Positions 3,647-20,216 of a stretch of DNA of 50,880 nt are shown here, in pieces. The notes under the pieces were generated by a model. That model was not told the DNA's origin and made no database searches. It worked only from the letters and a program-made list of their open reading frames with translations. Position 1 is the stretch's first letter; each line of letters begins with the position of its first letter. The position numbers and the translations under genes were made by a program. The DNA lies in the NCBI GenBank assembly GCA_039715015.1, contig JBDLIE010000018.1:1-50880 (forward strand), written 5' to 3'. Source of the DNA: Thermodesulfobacteriota bacterium. Its GTDB lineage: Bacteria; Desulfobacterota; Desulfobulbia; Desulfobulbales; SURF-16.

Positions 3647-4180
3647 TTATTCTTCCAGATCAACCTCGATATCCAGATCAATCCAGATATCCTTGCCGAC
3701 CATCACCCCTCCATCATCCATGGGCACATTCCAGGCCATGCCGTACTCTTCGCGGTTCACCGCGGTTGTTGCTGTGATGCCGAGGGTGGTCTCGCCGCCG
3801 AAGTCCTCAGGGCTGATCACGGGTCCTGAAAAAGATACCTCAAGGGTGACCGGCTTAGTGACCCCATGGATGGTCAAATCACCGGCCAGTCTGCCGCCGT
3901 CTGCCGCCGCCGCAAAGTTGCTGCTTTTGAAGATTATGGCCGGGAAGGTTCCCACGTCGAAGAAGTCGGGACTGGCAAGATGCTCGTCCCGCTGGGCGAT
4001 ACCTGTATAGAGACCGGTGACGGCCACCGCAACTTCCAGGGAGAAAGAGGAGGGATCTTCCGGATCGAACTGGGCCGAACCGCTTAATTTATTGAACTGA
4101 CCGCGGACATGGGCGACCATCATGTGCCGGACCTTGAATGCTGCCACCGAATGATCGGGATCAATATTCCATTTCGCCAT
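3647..4180 (-). CDS. YceI-family protein, no signal peptide
   Basis: WNIDPDHS..FKVRHMM..VRGQF; RDEHLASPDFFD; GDLTIHGVTKPV. Confidence 0.93.
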   Translation of the reverse strand: MAKWNIDPDHSVAAFKVRHMMVAHVRGQFNKLSGSAQFDPEDPSSFSLEVAVAVTGLYTGIAQRDEHLASPDFFDVGTFPAIIFKSSNFAAAADGGRLAGDLTIHGVTKPVTLEVSFSGPVISPEDFGGETTLGITATTAVNREEYGMAWNVPMDDGGVMVGKDIWIDLDIEVDLEE

Positions 4181-4202: not shown

Positions 4203-5252
4203 TTAAGAGCAGTTGATAAAACACTGGGGGTCTTCGGCCAGGATATCCCCCTTGCCCCTGCAAAGTGAATGGGCGTAGGCGATGGCCCGGCAGCCCCGGC
4301 AATGCGCCCACCTGGAGCAGCTACCGCACCTACCCTTGTAGCGGCCACGATCTCGGAGTTGCTCTAGAGTCTTGGAATTGGCCCAGATCTCCCGCAAGCA
4401 ATCTTCCCGAACATTGCCGATGGGAACCGCCAACCGCCGACAGGGAGTGACAGTGCCATCGGCCAGGAGCGTCAGGCCAGAAACTCCGGCAGCGCAGCCG
4501 CCGGCGGCAATCGAGCCGCAATCATCCACTCCAGCCCCGTTTCTCATCTGCGAGGCCACCGGATCGCCGGTGACGATCTCAAGGCCATTGACAGGAAGGG
4601 CAAAAATCGCCTTATATATTTCCCTGACCTTGTCCCTGCCGAGCATTTGATCGACCAAACCAAGGCCCTGGCCGGAAGGCACCAACCGCGAAAACCCCAG
4701 GCGCTGCACTCCGAGAGAGGAGGCAATCTCAACCAAGTCCTTAAATTTATCGGCATTGATCTCCGACAGGGTGGCATTCAGGGTCACCTTATGCCCAGCG
4801 GCAAGGAGAAGGCCAATACCTTGGCAGGAAGCGCTGAAACTGCCCTGCCCCCTTATCTGGTCATGAATATCTTCCGGCCCCTCGATACTTACCTGGACAC
4901 CTTTAACGCCAACCTCGGCCAACATTGCCGCCTTTTGGTCATCAATCAGGGTACCATTAGTAAGCAGATAGATGGCGAACCCCCGGGAGCCCATCTCGCC
5001 GAGGACCTCAAAAAGGTCTTCTCTCAGGAAGGGCTCGCCGCCGGTAACGTTAAGGCTTGGGGAAAACTCTAGATGATAGGCCTCTTCCCAGACTTCGAGC
5101 ATGCCGGTTATTTCATTAAGCACCTCACGGATTTCGGCCAAGGAAAGCTCTGTAAAACTCTCACCTGCCTGGTAACAATGCGTGCAGCGCAGATTGCACC
5201 TTTCGGTGAGGTGCCACTGAACAAAAAACTCCTGAAGGCTGCTTATAGGCAT
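4203..5252 (-). CDS. Radical SAM/SPASM protein resembling the SbtM catalytic core; candidate peptide maturase
   Basis: QWHLTERCNLRCTHCY, TGGEP; SPASM GGCAAG..PCRR..CGSC...CRGCRA..DPQC. Confidence 0.9.
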   Translation of the reverse strand: MPISSLQEFFVQWHLTERCNLRCTHCYQAGESFTELSLAEIREVLNEITGMLEVWEEAYHLEFSPSLNVTGGEPFLREDLFEVLGEMGSRGFAIYLLTNGTLIDDQKAAMLAEVGVKGVQVSIEGPEDIHDQIRGQGSFSASCQGIGLLLAAGHKVTLNATLSEINADKFKDLVEIASSLGVQRLGFSRLVPSGQGLGLVDQMLGRDKVREIYKAIFALPVNGLEIVTGDPVASQMRNGAGVDDCGSIAAGGCAAGVSGLTLLADGTVTPCRRLAVPIGNVREDCLREIWANSKTLEQLRDRGRYKGRCGSCSRWAHCRGCRAIAYAHSLCRGKGDILAEDPQCFINCS

Positions 5253-5302
5253 CGGCTGTTTGACCTCGGTAAGGGTAAGGTGATATTCTCCAGGTAATAC
5301 AA

Positions 5303-5336
5303 CTAATTGGCAGGTGCAATCACACCTGCCAATTAG
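5303..5336 (-). terminator. Perfect 14-bp hairpin between the peptide gene and the radical SAM gene (terminator or stabiliser)
   Basis: Minus strand CTAATTGGCAGGTG-TGATTG-CACCTGCCAATTAG followed by TTGTATT. Confidence 0.6.
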
Positions 5337-5341
5337 GCTTT

Positions 5342-5358
5342 GTTGCCGACCGGCAACC
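5342..5358 (-). promoter_or_regulatory. SECIS-like hairpin
   Basis: GGUUGCC-GGUC-GGCAAC begins 11 nt after UGA 5372-5370; closely resembles the E. coli fdhF upper hairpin GGUUGCAGGUCUGCACC. Confidence 0.7.
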
Positions 5359-5483
5359 TATTCAGACTTTCAACCCTTTCACTTGTGGCAAAGCCGGCCG
5401 GGATTCTCCTTAACAGCTTTGCTCATCTTTGCCCAAAAGGCGGCTTCTTTCACCAAGGCTTCTTTGCTAAGATTCTTCTTCAT
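5358..5483 (-). CDS. Putative selenopeptide RiPP precursor, 41 aa: MKKNLSKEALVKEAAFWAKMSKAVKENPGRLCHKUKGUKSE
   Basis: GGAGGTG RBS; ATG 5483; in-frame TGA at 5381-5379 and 5372-5370; TAG 5360-5358; SECIS-like hairpin; upstream of the radical SAM/SPASM gene. Absent from the ORF track. Confidence 0.68.
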
Positions 5484-5775
5484 ACCAATCCACCTCCATT
5501 ATTGTGACACGGCGACATGCCGTAAGCCTATCAAATAGGATCGGCCACCTACTAAAGTTTTGTCAAATGGAAAAAACGAAAGTTGTCAAATCAAGCCTAC
5601 GCCTCTGGCAATGAGCAATACAATAGTGAGGAAAACACAGAGTTTACGTGAGCAATATCTTCCCAGCAGCAAACGCCTTGATCCTTTAACAATTATGTTG
5701 AAACGTTAAAATTCTCTGGAGATGAACGAATTTTTCTGTCATCTTAGGAGGCCAATATGAAATCAGGAGCCATGC

Positions 5776-16636: not shown

Positions 16637-17941
16637 ATGACCAAAGAGACAGCGTCCAAAAAAAAATCAACAAAACACCTTTCCACCGGTGATGTACGCA
16701 GCTATTTCAGGCTGCTGCACCACAATCCTCACTTTACCCGCCTCTGGCTTGCCGGGGTCATCAGCCATATCGGCAACTGGTTTAACTATATTGGTATTTT
16801 TGTTCTCCTAAATGAGTTTACCGGTTCAGGGCAGGCCGTGAGCTGGTTTCTCATTGCCAAGTTCATGCCCTCCTTTTTATGGGGACCAATGGCCGGCGTT
16901 ATTGCTGACCGCTTGCCGCGCAAGCTGATTATGATTACCGGTGATATCCTCCGGGCCATCATTGTTCTTGGCTTTCTCCTTGTTGATGATGTCCAGTATA
17001 TCTGGCTCATCTATGTCCTGGCCCTGACCCAGGAAACAGTATGGACCTTCACGGATCCGGCCCGCCGCGCCTCTGTTCCCAATCTTTGCGCCAAAGAAGA
17101 GCTCAAGCTTGCCAATAGCCTTAATGGTGCGACCTGGTCTGTCATGCTGGCAGTGGGAGCGGCCCTGGGAGGTTATGTATCAGCCCGTTTTGGCTGGCGA
17201 ACCGCAATTATTGTCGATGCATCAACATTTCTTGTCTCGGCAGCCCTGTTGACAGCGCTGCCCTTACCTCACCGCACAAAGGAAAAACAACCTCACAAGA
17301 CATGGGCAACCCTCTTGGGCTTCACCGACCTTAAAGAGGGCTGGATCTACGTTATCCAGCATAAAGAGGCCGCCCGCCTCATGTTGGTCAAAAGCGGCTG
17401 GGCCATGGCAGGTGGTTTTCTTGTCATGCTCACCATTTTCGGTGAACAGATTTTTGGCGGAGAGAGTGGCGGCAAAAGTGGCGTATTTTACTCAGCCCGT
17501 GGCATTGGGGCCGCCCTTGGGCCTATAGTGGTCTGGAATTTATTTGGTGAAGAGAAAGAGGACATGACCCGGGCCATTGGCTTTGGTTTCTTTGTGGCTG
17601 CCTTCTCCTATCTCTGCTTCAGCCAGTCCACCTCTCTCTGGCTGGCTGCATTTTTTGTCTTCTTTGCCCATCTTGGCGGTTCCGTGCAATGGGTCTTCTC
17701 AACAACGCTGCTTCAAGAGATGGTGGAGGATGATTTTCGGGGCCGTGTTTTTGCTGCTGAGATGGCCCTCCTCACCCTGGTACTTTCCATCTCCACCTGG
17801 CTCACCGGTTTTGTTCTTGATTTGGGAATGGCACCAAGGCTGGTCACCGCCTGCCTGTCTGGTTGCTTCCTTATACCTGGGCTGGCCTGGAGCCTGACTG
17901 AACCTAATCCGCAAAGGGTAGATCAGTCAAAAAAACAATAG
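16637..17941 (+). CDS. MFS transporter
   Basis: Many hydrophobic segments; motif A GVIADRLPRK; RGRVFA. Confidence 0.9.
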   Translation: MTKETASKKKSTKHLSTGDVRSYFRLLHHNPHFTRLWLAGVISHIGNWFNYIGIFVLLNEFTGSGQAVSWFLIAKFMPSFLWGPMAGVIADRLPRKLIMITGDILRAIIVLGFLLVDDVQYIWLIYVLALTQETVWTFTDPARRASVPNLCAKEELKLANSLNGATWSVMLAVGAALGGYVSARFGWRTAIIVDASTFLVSAALLTALPLPHRTKEKQPHKTWATLLGFTDLKEGWIYVIQHKEAARLMLVKSGWAMAGGFLVMLTIFGEQIFGGESGGKSGVFYSARGIGAALGPIVVWNLFGEEKEDMTRAIGFGFFVAAFSYLCFSQSTSLWLAAFFVFFAHLGGSVQWVFSTTLLQEMVEDDFRGRVFAAEMALLTLVLSISTWLTGFVLDLGMAPRLVTACLSGCFLIPGLAWSLTEPNPQRVDQSKKQ

Positions 17942-19479
17942 GGATCTTTTTCAGTAAAGATATCTAAGCCCATACCGTGGGTCACGGCAAGGCAACCGCC
18001 ACAGGCGCTGCGTATCTTGCAGCCACTGCAGGCCTCGGAGCCGGCCCGGTATCGTCTGGCAGCCTCGTTATGGTAGATCTCCGACAGGCTGTTGACCTGA
18101 ATATTGCCGATATGGGAAGGAAACTTGCGGCAGGCATGCACCTCACCGTCGGCAAGGAGTGACAGAAAATTAAAGGCCGCCCCGCAACCATAGCCCGTAC
18201 AGCCCCCAAACGACGACCTGCCATCTTTTACAAACAAGGTGTTTAGGTGATTGTCCTTAAGGCCCATACAGGGATTGGCTAAGGATGCCTCGTAATAACG
18301 ACGCAGAAAATCCTCGTAGCCTTCGGTGGGGGCAGAGAGGAGCTGTGCCCCTTCGCCCACCATGGCCAGCCTGTTAAAATTAAAGAGATCAACCTTATCC
18401 CTCAAGAGTTCGGCCAGGGGCAGTACCTGATCCTGATTCTCCCTGGTTAGGGTCAACATGACCATGGAATAGACACCCAGCTCTTTAAGAATCTCTAGAA
18501 ATTCAATAATCCGCTCAAAATGCCCGGCTCCGCGGATATGATCATTATGCTCCTGAAGGCCCTCCAGACTGACCTGAAAAAACTCTAAGGGTTGAATGGC
18601 CTGCAGTTCCTCAACAACCTCTCTCGCCGCAGGGTTGCCGAGAATAGCCAGCTGAAAGCCCCGGTCAGCAGCAGCCTGATACAGCTCGTTAAAGCGTGGA
18701 TAGAGCAAAGGATTGCCACCGGTAAAGGTCACCTGGCCATAGACATGATGTTCCCGGCAGAAAGCGCGAAAATCATCAAGGATGACGAGGGCCTGCCCAT
18801 AATCAACGGCTGTGCGGCTTGTCCGGTCATAACAATGTTTACAGTGGAGATCACAGGCCTGGGTGATATGCCATTGCAGGGTAAAGGCCCCCGAGGACAG
18901 ATATCTTTCAGGGACAAAATCATTTGTCTTAAAAAGAGTGGTATCGCGGCGGATAGTTGTTTCAGGGACCAGGAGATACTCTTCATTTTCGGCCCGTTCC
19001 ATAATACGATCAAGATAGGCCAGAGTCACCTTATGCTCGCTGGCTGCCTGGGCCAGGTCAATACCCTCTTCGACAAGTTTTAAGGCAAGAAGGTCCTGGG
19101 GACCGGCATTCTTGTAACGTACCGCACCACCGGTCAGCTGCCAGACAAGGACCAGCTGTTCGCCTGGCTGGCCCTCTTCATCACGCCCGGCCAGGATAGG
19201 GGCCAAATTCTGCCAGGGGAACTGGGCAATGCGAAGGGTGGGATTAACAACAACCTTTTCGGCAGGAGGAGCTAAGTCTGCATCTAAGCGCTCCACTTCC
19301 GCCACCAGCTGCTCAAGGCGGGCTAGATCAGGGAGAAAGGAAGGCAGATGGAGATCATCAATATGGTGAGCCAACCAGTCAGATAACTCCAGGGATGACT
19401 CTTGGTCATTGGCCTGGAGAGATTGGGCAAGAATTGCCAAAGAACGAGGATAATCGGAAAGCATCTCTCTGCCTGTCAC
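17923..19479 (-). CDS. sbtM: Selenobiotic / thio(seleno)oxazole radical SAM maturase, SbtM family
   Basis: About 190-aa N-terminal extension (DLARLE..VNPTL), FTLQWHITQACDLHCKHCYDR, SPASM GGCTGYGCGAA..CGGC..DPYC; downstream of the SS-U/C-G precursor. Confidence 0.88.
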   Translation of the reverse strand: MTGREMLSDYPRSLAILAQSLQANDQESSLELSDWLAHHIDDLHLPSFLPDLARLEQLVAEVERLDADLAPPAEKVVVNPTLRIAQFPWQNLAPILAGRDEEGQPGEQLVLVWQLTGGAVRYKNAGPQDLLALKLVEEGIDLAQAASEHKVTLAYLDRIMERAENEEYLLVPETTIRRDTTLFKTNDFVPERYLSSGAFTLQWHITQACDLHCKHCYDRTSRTAVDYGQALVILDDFRAFCREHHVYGQVTFTGGNPLLYPRFNELYQAAADRGFQLAILGNPAAREVVEELQAIQPLEFFQVSLEGLQEHNDHIRGAGHFERIIEFLEILKELGVYSMVMLTLTRENQDQVLPLAELLRDKVDLFNFNRLAMVGEGAQLLSAPTEGYEDFLRRYYEASLANPCMGLKDNHLNTLFVKDGRSSFGGCTGYGCGAAFNFLSLLADGEVHACRKFPSHIGNIQVNSLSEIYHNEAARRYRAGSEACSGCKIRSACGGCLAVTHGMGLDIFTEKDPYCFFD

Positions 19480-19612: not shown

Positions 19613-20071
19613 CTACTTCCTTTGACCACCACAGCTGGAGCCTGCACCATCCTTCTTCTGACCACTACAGCTGGAGCCTGTACCATCCTTCATCTGGCCA
19701 CTACAGCTGGAGCCTGCACCATCCTTCTTCTTTTCGACACCTCCGGTGTCGCCTTTTTTACCGCCTCAGCTGGAGCCGGCTGGATCAGCCTTCTTGTCAT
19801 CAGCGCTCACGGCGCTGCCTTTTTTACCGCCTCAGCTAGAGCCGGCTGGATCAGCCTTCTTATCATCAGCGCTCACGGCGCTGCCTTTTTTACCACCTCA
19901 GCTGGATCCTGTCTGATGCTGCTCCTCCTCGCCAGCGCCACCTGCGCCGGTTTTACCAGGGCCTCAACTACTGCTGGCAATTCCTGTTCCGGGAACAGCG
20001 ACTCCTGCTCCAGCAATCAGTCCGGCGAGACCGAACTGTGCCAGAGTCTTCTTGAGCTCCTTTATTTCCAC
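19613..20071 (-). CDS. sbtA: SbtA-family selenobiotic RiPP precursor, 152 aa, 4 Sec and 3 Cys core motifs
   Basis: GAGGAGG RBS, GTG 20071, leader MEIKELKKTLAQFGLAGLIAGAG; in-frame TGA at codons 36, 58, 80, 102 in SS-U-G; TGT at codons 123, 135, 147 in SS-C-[SG]; TAG 19615-19613. Confidence 0.88.
19624..19910 (-). repeat. Coding tandem repeats within the precursor: 66-nt Sec units and 36-nt Cys units
   Basis: GSSUGGKKGSAVSADDKKADPA twice, nearly identical; KDG[AT]GSSC[SG]GQ three times. Confidence 0.9.
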
Positions 20072-20216
20072 GTCATTCCTCCTCAGCAAAGGATTTAGTG
20101 AGACACAAAGATGGCTGGGAGCAATCTTTGCCCTTCTTGGTAAAATTCAGTATGTCATAACAGATTAGTTTTTTCCACCTACTTTTATTATTAGATAGGT
20201 TTTTCTGATTAGCTGT

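Follow-up and report, generated by a model that had tools for sequence, protein, structure and literature searches.

A two-UGA peptide gene beside a radical SAM/SPASM enzyme gene: a candidate selenopeptide system related to SbtA/SbtM

In the available excerpts of PMC9204691 and PMC13188914, SbtA/SbtM (TIGR04081/TIGR04082; 'Selenobacteriocin' in PMC13188914) is the only known family of ribosomal peptides that contain selenocysteine (Sec) and are paired with a radical SAM enzyme. The Sec motif of SbtA is Gly-rich (GGUG or SGUG) according to the same excerpts, and SbtM modifies the Sec residue itself, giving a thio(seleno)oxazole product (available part of PMC9204691). In this study, we analysed a stretch of 50,880 nucleotides from a Thermodesulfobacteriota bacterium (contig JBDLIE010000018.1, positions 1 to 50,880; hereafter the window) and found a small minus-strand peptide gene with two in-frame UGA codons, followed by the gene of a radical SAM/SPASM enzyme. 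The outline is that of SbtA/SbtM as these excerpts describe it: a ribosomal peptide with UGA-encoded Sec, a selenocysteine insertion sequence (SECIS) and a radical SAM/SPASM enzyme. We consider it likely that the two genes form a selenopeptide maturation system, in which the peptide would be made with two Sec residues and would serve as the substrate of the enzyme; the enzyme would most likely act on the Cys/Sec triad of the peptide. The elements of the locus are as follows.

5491..5497, minus strand: ribosome-binding site GGAGGTG, read in the sequence, with a 7 nt spacer to the ATG
5358..5483, minus strand: candidate selenopeptide gene, 41 codons plus TAG
5342..5357, minus strand: SECIS-type hairpin GTTGCC-GGTC-GGCAAC (6-bp stem GUUGCC/GGCAAC, GGUC loop), directly after the TAG
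5293..5336, minus strand: terminator-like hairpin (15-bp stem-loop 5336-5303) plus U-rich tail, between the peptide and enzyme genes
4203..5252, minus strand: 349-aa radical SAM/SPASM enzyme, presumed maturase, with Radical_SAM and SPASM domains by Pfam

SbtA/SbtM and the new peptide-enzyme pair are both found in the window, the former at these positions.

17923-19479, minus strand: true SbtM (TIGR04082, 683.7 bits, cut-off 350)
19613-20158, minus strand: SbtA-type long precursor upstream of SbtM (TIGR04081 on the hydrophobic leader at 19991-20062, 35.8 bits, cut-off 30.5)

Beyond its leader, the SbtA-type frame has repeated G-S-S-U-G units with four in-frame TGA codons; the three units that follow carry Cys at the U position. 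The leader of SbtA is hydrophobic, whereas that of the new peptide is charged and carries a KEAAFW motif. Instead of the Gly/Ser-rich G-U-G of SbtA, the Sec positions here stand in K-U-K and G/S/E-U-K, within a C-x-x-U-x-x-U triad, and the peptide gave no TIGR04081 match (cut-off 30.5 bits). Residues 9-347 of the new enzyme aligned with residues 199-518 of SbtM only (29% identity, E 1e-33), indicating that the N-terminal extension of SbtM (about 198 residues) is missing from the new enzyme; its TIGR04082 match covers model positions 199-506 of 516 and reaches 134.1 bits, under the cut-off of 350. While SbtA/SbtM range over 'Geobacter and Desulfobacteria', the new peptide also occurs in 57 or 58 of 301 sampled genomes of a second phylum, about one in five. 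Since the peptide matches no TIGR04081 and the enzyme falls short of the SbtM cut-off, the pair is, judged by sequence, related to SbtA/SbtM and not a member of it. An earlier reading of the sequence alone (the sequence-only reading) had proposed a peptide without the hydrophobic leader or Ser/Gly-flanked Sec of SbtA, and an enzyme resembling the SbtM at 17.9 kb without its extension; both proposals agree with these results.

SCIFF peptides, which are short, highly conserved and Cys-rich, form two-gene units with their radical SAM/SPASM maturases (ranthipeptides); these systems have no dedicated protease or exporter and are widespread in anaerobes. The new pair resembles them in outline (two genes, a short conserved peptide, a radical SAM/SPASM enzyme), but the sequences are unrelated (74 bits with the ranthipeptide maturase model of the PapB family, cut-off 340), Sec replaces Cys, and the core has only nine or ten residues. 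PqqA/PqqE and MftA/MftC likewise join a small conserved precursor, with its reactive residues at the C-terminus, to an adjoining radical SAM/SPASM enzyme, and PqqE was the second-best fold match of our enzyme. However, the enzyme stays under the cut-offs of these families (MftC, 133 versus 265 bits; PqqE, 86 versus 381), and no PqqD-type chaperone or further pathway gene is conserved within 3 kb of it. The anaerobic sulfatase-maturating enzyme anSME (PDB 4k37-4k39) gave the best fold match over the full length; it is of similar size, also has no leader-recognition domain, and acts on a Cys (or Ser) side chain in the peptide that it binds. Its identity to the new enzyme is only 17-18%, its substrates are sulfatases with another motif, and no sulfatase context was seen here.

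UGA codons and the hairpin of the peptide gene

With TGA read as Sec, the frame from the ATG at 5483 gives MKKNLSKEALVKEAAFWAKMSKAVKENPGRLCHKUKGUKSE and ends with the TAG at 5360-5358. The two TGA codons lie at 5381-5379 and 5372-5370; they fall within the core C32-H-K-U35-K-G-U38-K-S-E, which follows the leader with KEAAFW. Under translation table 11, the open reading frame ends at 34 aa (5379..5483). We observed in the sequence every element that the sequence-only reading had named: a 41-codon minus-strand frame behind GGAGGTG, its end C-HK-TGA-KG-TGA-KSE-TAG, and after it a SECIS-like hairpin, a stem-loop and the 349-aa enzyme gene. A profile hidden Markov model (HMM) built from 45 peptides found a single copy in the source genome, the window gene itself (64 bits, 2 TGA inside).

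We collected enzyme homologues with an alignment of 32 relatives, which gave 80 loci at 44-83% identity in a species-level genome collection. The labels of their metagenome-assembled genomes (MAGs) include Desulfobulbaceae, Nitrospirae/Thermodesulfovibrionales, Desulfobaccales, Syntrophorhabdaceae, Geobacter, Deferribacteres and Chloroflexota. Upstream DNA was translated with TGA as Sec. The results showed that the peptide adjoins the enzyme homologue in 66 of the 80 loci, or 66 of the 77 that could be assessed, the upstream DNA of the other 3 being too short to judge; 62 of these peptides came from a pattern search and 4 were recognised by eye (L082, L084, L107 and L113). An adjacent peptide was not found in the remaining 11 of the 77. 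The start codon is preceded by GGAGGTGA-type ribosome-binding sites in most homologous loci. The peptides share the consensus M-K-K-x-L-S-K-x-A-L-x-K-E-A-A-F-W-...-N-P-G-K-V-C-H-K-U-K-x-U-K-S, and 45 aligned peptides show no variation at E13, A14, the Cys, the two Sec positions and K39. One of 60 relatives of the source genome (G005) has an enzyme orthologue (68% identity), with the same peptide and an identical first hairpin. That dozens of distant genomes share the peptide, its two UGAs and the hairpin is more than chance. In one locus (L076), the peptide gene is present twice (932 and 2736), and the enzyme gene is accompanied by an incomplete second copy.

Codon usage in the core was counted over 72 peptide genes, with the following results.

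First UGA site: TGA 71, TGC 1 (L120), n=72
Second UGA site: TGA 71, TAA 1 (L087), n=72
Cys codon: TGC 56, TGT 16, n=72
Lys after the first UGA: AAG 56, AAA 7
Lys after the second UGA: AAG 54, AAA 17
Residue after the Lys that follows the second UGA: Ser AGY 45, Ser TCN 9, Thr ACN 10
10th core codon: TAA 23, TGA 15, TAG 10

These counts bear on whether the UGAs are plain stops. The product would then have 34 residues and end in C-H-K, and the role of the hairpins would be limited to stabilising or terminating the transcript. If the first UGA were a plain stop, the sequence downstream should drift freely and the site should hold a mixture of the three stop codons; neither was observed, which argues against this explanation. 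TAA or TAG stands at the first site in 0 of the 72 genes, and the only change there is to TGC. The second TGA follows exactly 9 nt on in 71 of the 72, with the true stop at a fixed place after it. Past the first UGA, K-x-U-K-S/T is retained through synonymous variation that includes both the AGY and the TCN codons of Ser, as the sequence-only reading had anticipated in asking for conservation beyond this point. Additionally, every full-length peptide match in the genome samples of two phyla described below has TGA inside, and the hairpin keeps a GG-first loop, a fixed distance and its base pairs by covariation. In favour of plain stops, 116 of 118 matches in a protein library end at or before the first UGA, and none of the RNA runs listed contains the stretch. 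Taking both sides together, we regard plain stops as very improbable, and we infer that the two UGAs are translated as Sec.

Two loci probably carry single-Sec variants: L087 (2848-2874) has TAA at the second Sec codon, and in L084 (2858-2900) the K-S codons are absent and the hairpin starts directly after the second TGA. A third in-frame TGA, the codon after K-S in 15 of the 72 genes, was considered as a further Sec codon and rejected. The hairpin loop is only 10-12 nt away from it, under the 16-nt bound, so this TGA was read as a stop; in two loci a TAG directly follows it.

The loop of the hairpin presumably resembles that of E. coli fdhF. In the window, the loop starts 21 nt past the U of the second UGA and 30 nt past the first. 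A script detected the hairpin in all but one of the 72 genes. Of these 71 loops, 65 start with GG (52 with GGTC), and 56 begin 19-21 nt past the U of the second UGA, which places them 28-30 nt past the first. Over 60 loci, 98.3% of the cells were paired and four of the six pairs showed compensatory changes (44 cells), while sliding the partner by 1-3 columns as a control gave at most 5 compensatory cells. The centroid fold of the region includes both the SECIS-type and the terminator-like hairpin (z = -3.19 against 200 shuffles). A bacterial SECIS, in the excerpts available of PMC13188914, has a small apical loop with G among the first two positions, 16-37 nt after the UGA; the hairpin has a small G-first loop at such a distance from both UGAs, together with the compensatory changes, and is predicted to behave as a SECIS. 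The same excerpts give the fdhF-type SECIS a short stem and a small loop starting GG(U) at this distance, as found here. Unlike that type, the present hairpin lies wholly in the 3' untranslated region, and two UGA codons at a spacing of 9 nt appear to share this single element.

The sequence-only reading had also called for Sec machinery, and the source genome contains selB (373 bits), selA (618 bits), selD and tRNA-Sec (70 bits). The selD gene (G000:C51:11990-12904, outside the window) has one in-frame TGA, indicating that it encodes a selenoprotein itself. selB scored above its cut-off in four of five other carrier genomes tested. Thus none of the three outcomes that would have spoken against the sequence-only reading was observed: homologous loci without an upstream peptide as a rule, loss of conservation beyond the first UGA, or a genome devoid of Sec machinery. 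An all-Cys form of the peptide was not found among the 72 genes, 702 sampled genomes and the 118 library matches, which suggests that selenium itself, and not merely a better thiol, is needed for the role of the peptide.

To place the peptide among described families, five variants of it were compared with Pfam and NCBIfam at E <= 10; nothing meaningful was found, the one SkfF match (E 0.26) being due to chance. The exact 34-aa table-11 product was not in a collection of 15 billion proteins. The peptide profile gave 118 matches among 1.84 billion representative proteins, and 116 of them reach no further than profile position 34, which directly precedes the first UGA; gene callers thus truncate the peptide at 34 aa, as had been expected. 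The two matches that go further are P0121, in which TGA is called as W, and P0188, of the L120 type, which stops before the second UGA. Named database copies (3 of 18 members listed) are 34-aa 'hypothetical protein' stumps, which point to a blind spot of gene callers. One protein cluster of such stumps, that of P0122, has two 827-aa members, P0241 and P0243, which may be read-through gene calls under another genetic code.

Full-text literature searches found no description of a C-x-x-U-x-x-U peptide. The table of 119 selenoprotein families in PMC13188914, in the part available, shows no xxUxxU motif and has Selenobacteriocin as its sole peptide-type entry. With no Pfam or NCBIfam model for the peptide and the enzyme below the SbtM cut-off, the distinct Sec-containing precursor family that the sequence-only reading proposed is upheld, and the peptide probably represents a second, uncatalogued family of selenium-containing modified peptides. 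If so, such a family would widen the known biological uses of selenium, offer a compact natural test case of one bacterial SECIS for two nearby UGAs, and bring a new radical SAM reaction on Sec by a stripped-down enzyme.

The enzyme and its partnership with the peptide

The enzyme has an invariant CX3CX2C motif at C19/C23/C26 and a single predicted SAM cluster. Its SPASM region has seven Cys that are invariant in the alignment of 32 (C253, C271, C309, C312, C318, C321 and C344), possibly enough for two auxiliary clusters, one of them with an open iron site. Among 120 protein clusters listed, all are at least 64% identical to the enzyme, and the named ones are generic radical SAM proteins or 'AdoMet-dependent heme synthase'. 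No NCBIfam model shown reaches its cut-off, the scores beyond those of SbtM, MftC, PqqE and the PapB family given above being as follows.

AhbD: 183.1 bits, cut-off 500
NirJ2: 162.8 bits, cut-off 500
ACGX: 158 bits, cut-off 400
GeoRSP: 156 bits, cut-off 400

The nearest solved structures by sequence are SkfB, PqqE, anSME, MoaA and CteB. A predicted model of the enzyme (predicted local distance difference test score 81.3, predicted template modelling score 0.82) had its best fold matches in anSME, PqqE, SuiB, SkfB and ChlB, which are peptide- or protein-modifying enzymes; the anSME match is full-length (template modelling scores 0.68/0.65, E 6e-15).

We then examined the partnership of the two genes at the level of whole genomes. 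Ten of the 11 loci without an adjacent peptide were searched genome-wide with the peptide profile, and in 8 of these 10 genomes a single peptide gene, containing two TGAs, was found at another place. In all three of the loci whose neighbours were viewed, the unlinked gene stands alone among unrelated genes. Two phylum samples were then counted for both genes, the second irrespective of genome completeness.

401 genomes, phylum of the window: both genes 27, enzyme only 0, peptide only 0
301 genomes, phylum of a Nitrospirae-labelled carrier: both genes 56, enzyme only 2, peptide only 1 strong and 1 weak

Enzyme orthologues were taken at E <= 1e-96 in the first sample (gap to 3e-82) and at E <= 4e-154 in the second (gap to 8e-84). 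In the first sample, 25 peptides were found by the profile HMM and 2 divergent ones (G464 and G197) by eye, directly upstream of the enzyme. Combined, 83 of the 702 sampled genomes have both genes, 2 have only the enzyme and 1-2 only the peptide, numbers that ignore kinship and therefore overstate the independent events. The weak peptide-only match is in G498. In G601, the enzyme orthologue (L168, G601:C3:8800-11000) is broken by a stop inside the CX3CX2C motif, and the peptide is absent from the 800 nt upstream and from the genome profile search; this looks like a decayed copy of the system.

Several observations weigh against a peptide that carries two Sec residues and is matured by this enzyme. 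The partnership has exceptions, counted irrespective of genome completeness, and kinship inflates it: the peptide was not found by the genome-wide profile search in the enzyme-bearing MAGs G066 and G070, G494 has an intact enzyme and no peptide in the 700 nt upstream or by profile, and G652 has a strong peptide match without the enzyme. One hairpin would have to serve two UGAs, the first at the far side of the usual distance. None of the RNA sequencing runs listed contains the window stretch, which was found in two DNA rows of one study. The highest family scores of the enzyme belong to the tetrapyrrole enzymes AhbD and NirJ2, Pfam found no leader-recognition (RRE/PqqD-like) domain in it and it has no N-terminal extension, and the 3 kb around it hold no protease or exporter that is conserved across the loci.

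The last three of these points also fit another explanation, as do the unlinked peptide genes in 8 genomes and the near invariance of the core across phyla, which is closer to what a functional site would show than to a natural-product core. Here the peptide would be a genuine mini-selenoprotein with two Sec residues that works alongside the enzyme and is not its substrate, be it as a redox partner, as a carrier of selenium or a metal, or as a small subunit; the enzyme would act on a tetrapyrrole or other small molecule. We consider this unlikely. The tetrapyrrole cut-off is not reached (183 versus 500 bits), and a paralogue with about 33% identity is encoded separately in the source genome (at G000:C53), of a kind common to most relatives. 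The nearest folds belong to peptide- or protein-modifying enzymes, and a small gene, a partial terminator and an enzyme gene make up the usual precursor-maturase layout. Additionally, SbtM, the closest characterised relative with a Sec substrate, modifies the Sec itself, as the available part of PMC9204691 describes. We therefore infer that the peptide is more likely the substrate of the enzyme than a separate partner.

Proposed pathway, terminator and neighbouring genes

In the maturation system that we favour, the small gene would be transcribed from its own promoter and translated into a peptide of 41 residues, whose leader looks helical and is rich in Lys and whose C-terminal core is short. 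Both in-frame UGAs would be read as Sec, with SelB recruited by the one GGUC-loop hairpin just after the stop. The U-tailed hairpin would then stop most transcripts, so that the peptide message would exceed the enzyme message. Lacking a separate domain for leader recognition, the enzyme would itself bind the peptide, and its 5'-deoxyadenosyl radical would lead to a modified Cys/Sec triad. Our guess at the chemistry is either S- or Se-to-carbon cross-links, as in sactipeptides and ranthipeptides, or a thio(seleno)oxazole, as with SbtM, for which a UV band near 304-313 nm is reported.

The near invariance of the core across phyla, the single-copy gene and the lack of a travelling protease or exporter suggest that the product would be kept inside the cell and serve as a redox or metal-binding peptide that depends on selenium, not as an antibiotic. 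A more specific version can be put forward tentatively, and we hold it to be possible but rather doubtful: the product would be an obligately selenium-dependent, peptide-derived cofactor or metal-binding agent with a housekeeping role in anaerobes, conserved like the precursors of pyrroloquinoline quinone (PQQ) and mycofactocin, made with two Sec through one SECIS in the 3' untranslated region, and given Se-C cross-links or selenooxazoles by an enzyme without RRE.

The hairpin 5336-5303 is followed on its 3' side by TTGTATTACC, and with its U-rich tail it is probably a partial terminator. By a rule of at least 7 bp in the hairpin and at least 5 T in the next 8 nt, a terminator-like hairpin lies between peptide and enzyme in 46 of 63 adjacent loci; outside the rule are 7 loci with spacers under 70 nt, which leave no room, and 10 without a hairpin by the strict rule. 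The order of a two-UGA frame, a SECIS, a terminator-like hairpin and an enzyme gene resembles that of attenuation leaders, and the small frame could be a cis-acting leader that senses selenium or Sec-tRNA, the passage of ribosomes through the UGAs setting the terminator and thus controlling the enzyme gene. This explanation was rejected because stand-alone peptide genes exist: in the 8 of 10 tested genomes mentioned above, the peptide gene and its hairpin lie far from the enzyme. The seven loci without room for a terminator also speak against it, and a mere sensing frame would not need the amino-acid conservation of leader and core across phyla. We give it hardly any credence.

The terminator stems often share GCAGATATGGC...GCCATATCTGC across MAGs of different phylum labels (for example L080, L081, L093, L100 and the window at 5336-5303). 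This likeness extends to the sequence and not to the structure alone; the cassette may have spread horizontally, or the stem may have a second function.

Upstream of the peptide gene, two further elements were noted.

5561..5566, minus strand: TTGACA, a -35-like hexamer after a T-run, candidate promoter part of the peptide gene (tentative)
5509..5523, minus strand: hairpin ACGGC-N5-GCCGT in the 5' untranslated region, just before the ribosome-binding site

Across 13 aligned near relatives, T-T-G-x-C-A does not vary and has a T-run before it, and the ACGGC...GCCGT arms are present in most. The promoter assignment stays tentative because a consensus promoter scan called no -10 hexamer and no minus-strand promoter upstream of the peptide gene. 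Rfam gave a sole match on 5200-5600, to a snoRNA family, which we attribute to chance (21 bits against a gathering score of 43).

A conserved neighbour gene was sought and rejected, since the gene downstream of the enzyme varies among 81 loci and none is universal. In the window, this place is taken by the following gene.

3647..4180, minus strand: YceI-like protein gene, 22 nt after the enzyme stop (Pfam YceI, 155 bits)

Proteins of the YceI family bind isoprenoid-type lipids. A YceI-like gene neighbours the enzyme in 18 of the 81 loci, the window among them; in most of these it lies shortly downstream and has the same orientation. The window copy is probably co-transcribed with the enzyme, as a variable accessory and not a core part. 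In 13-15 loci, mostly Nitrospirae-labelled (including L051, L057, L058, L060, L061, L079 and L114), the enzyme gene is followed by that of a PEMT/ICMT-like membrane methyltransferase, which in several overlaps the enzyme stop, and a Redoxin gene follows the enzyme gene in 6 loci.

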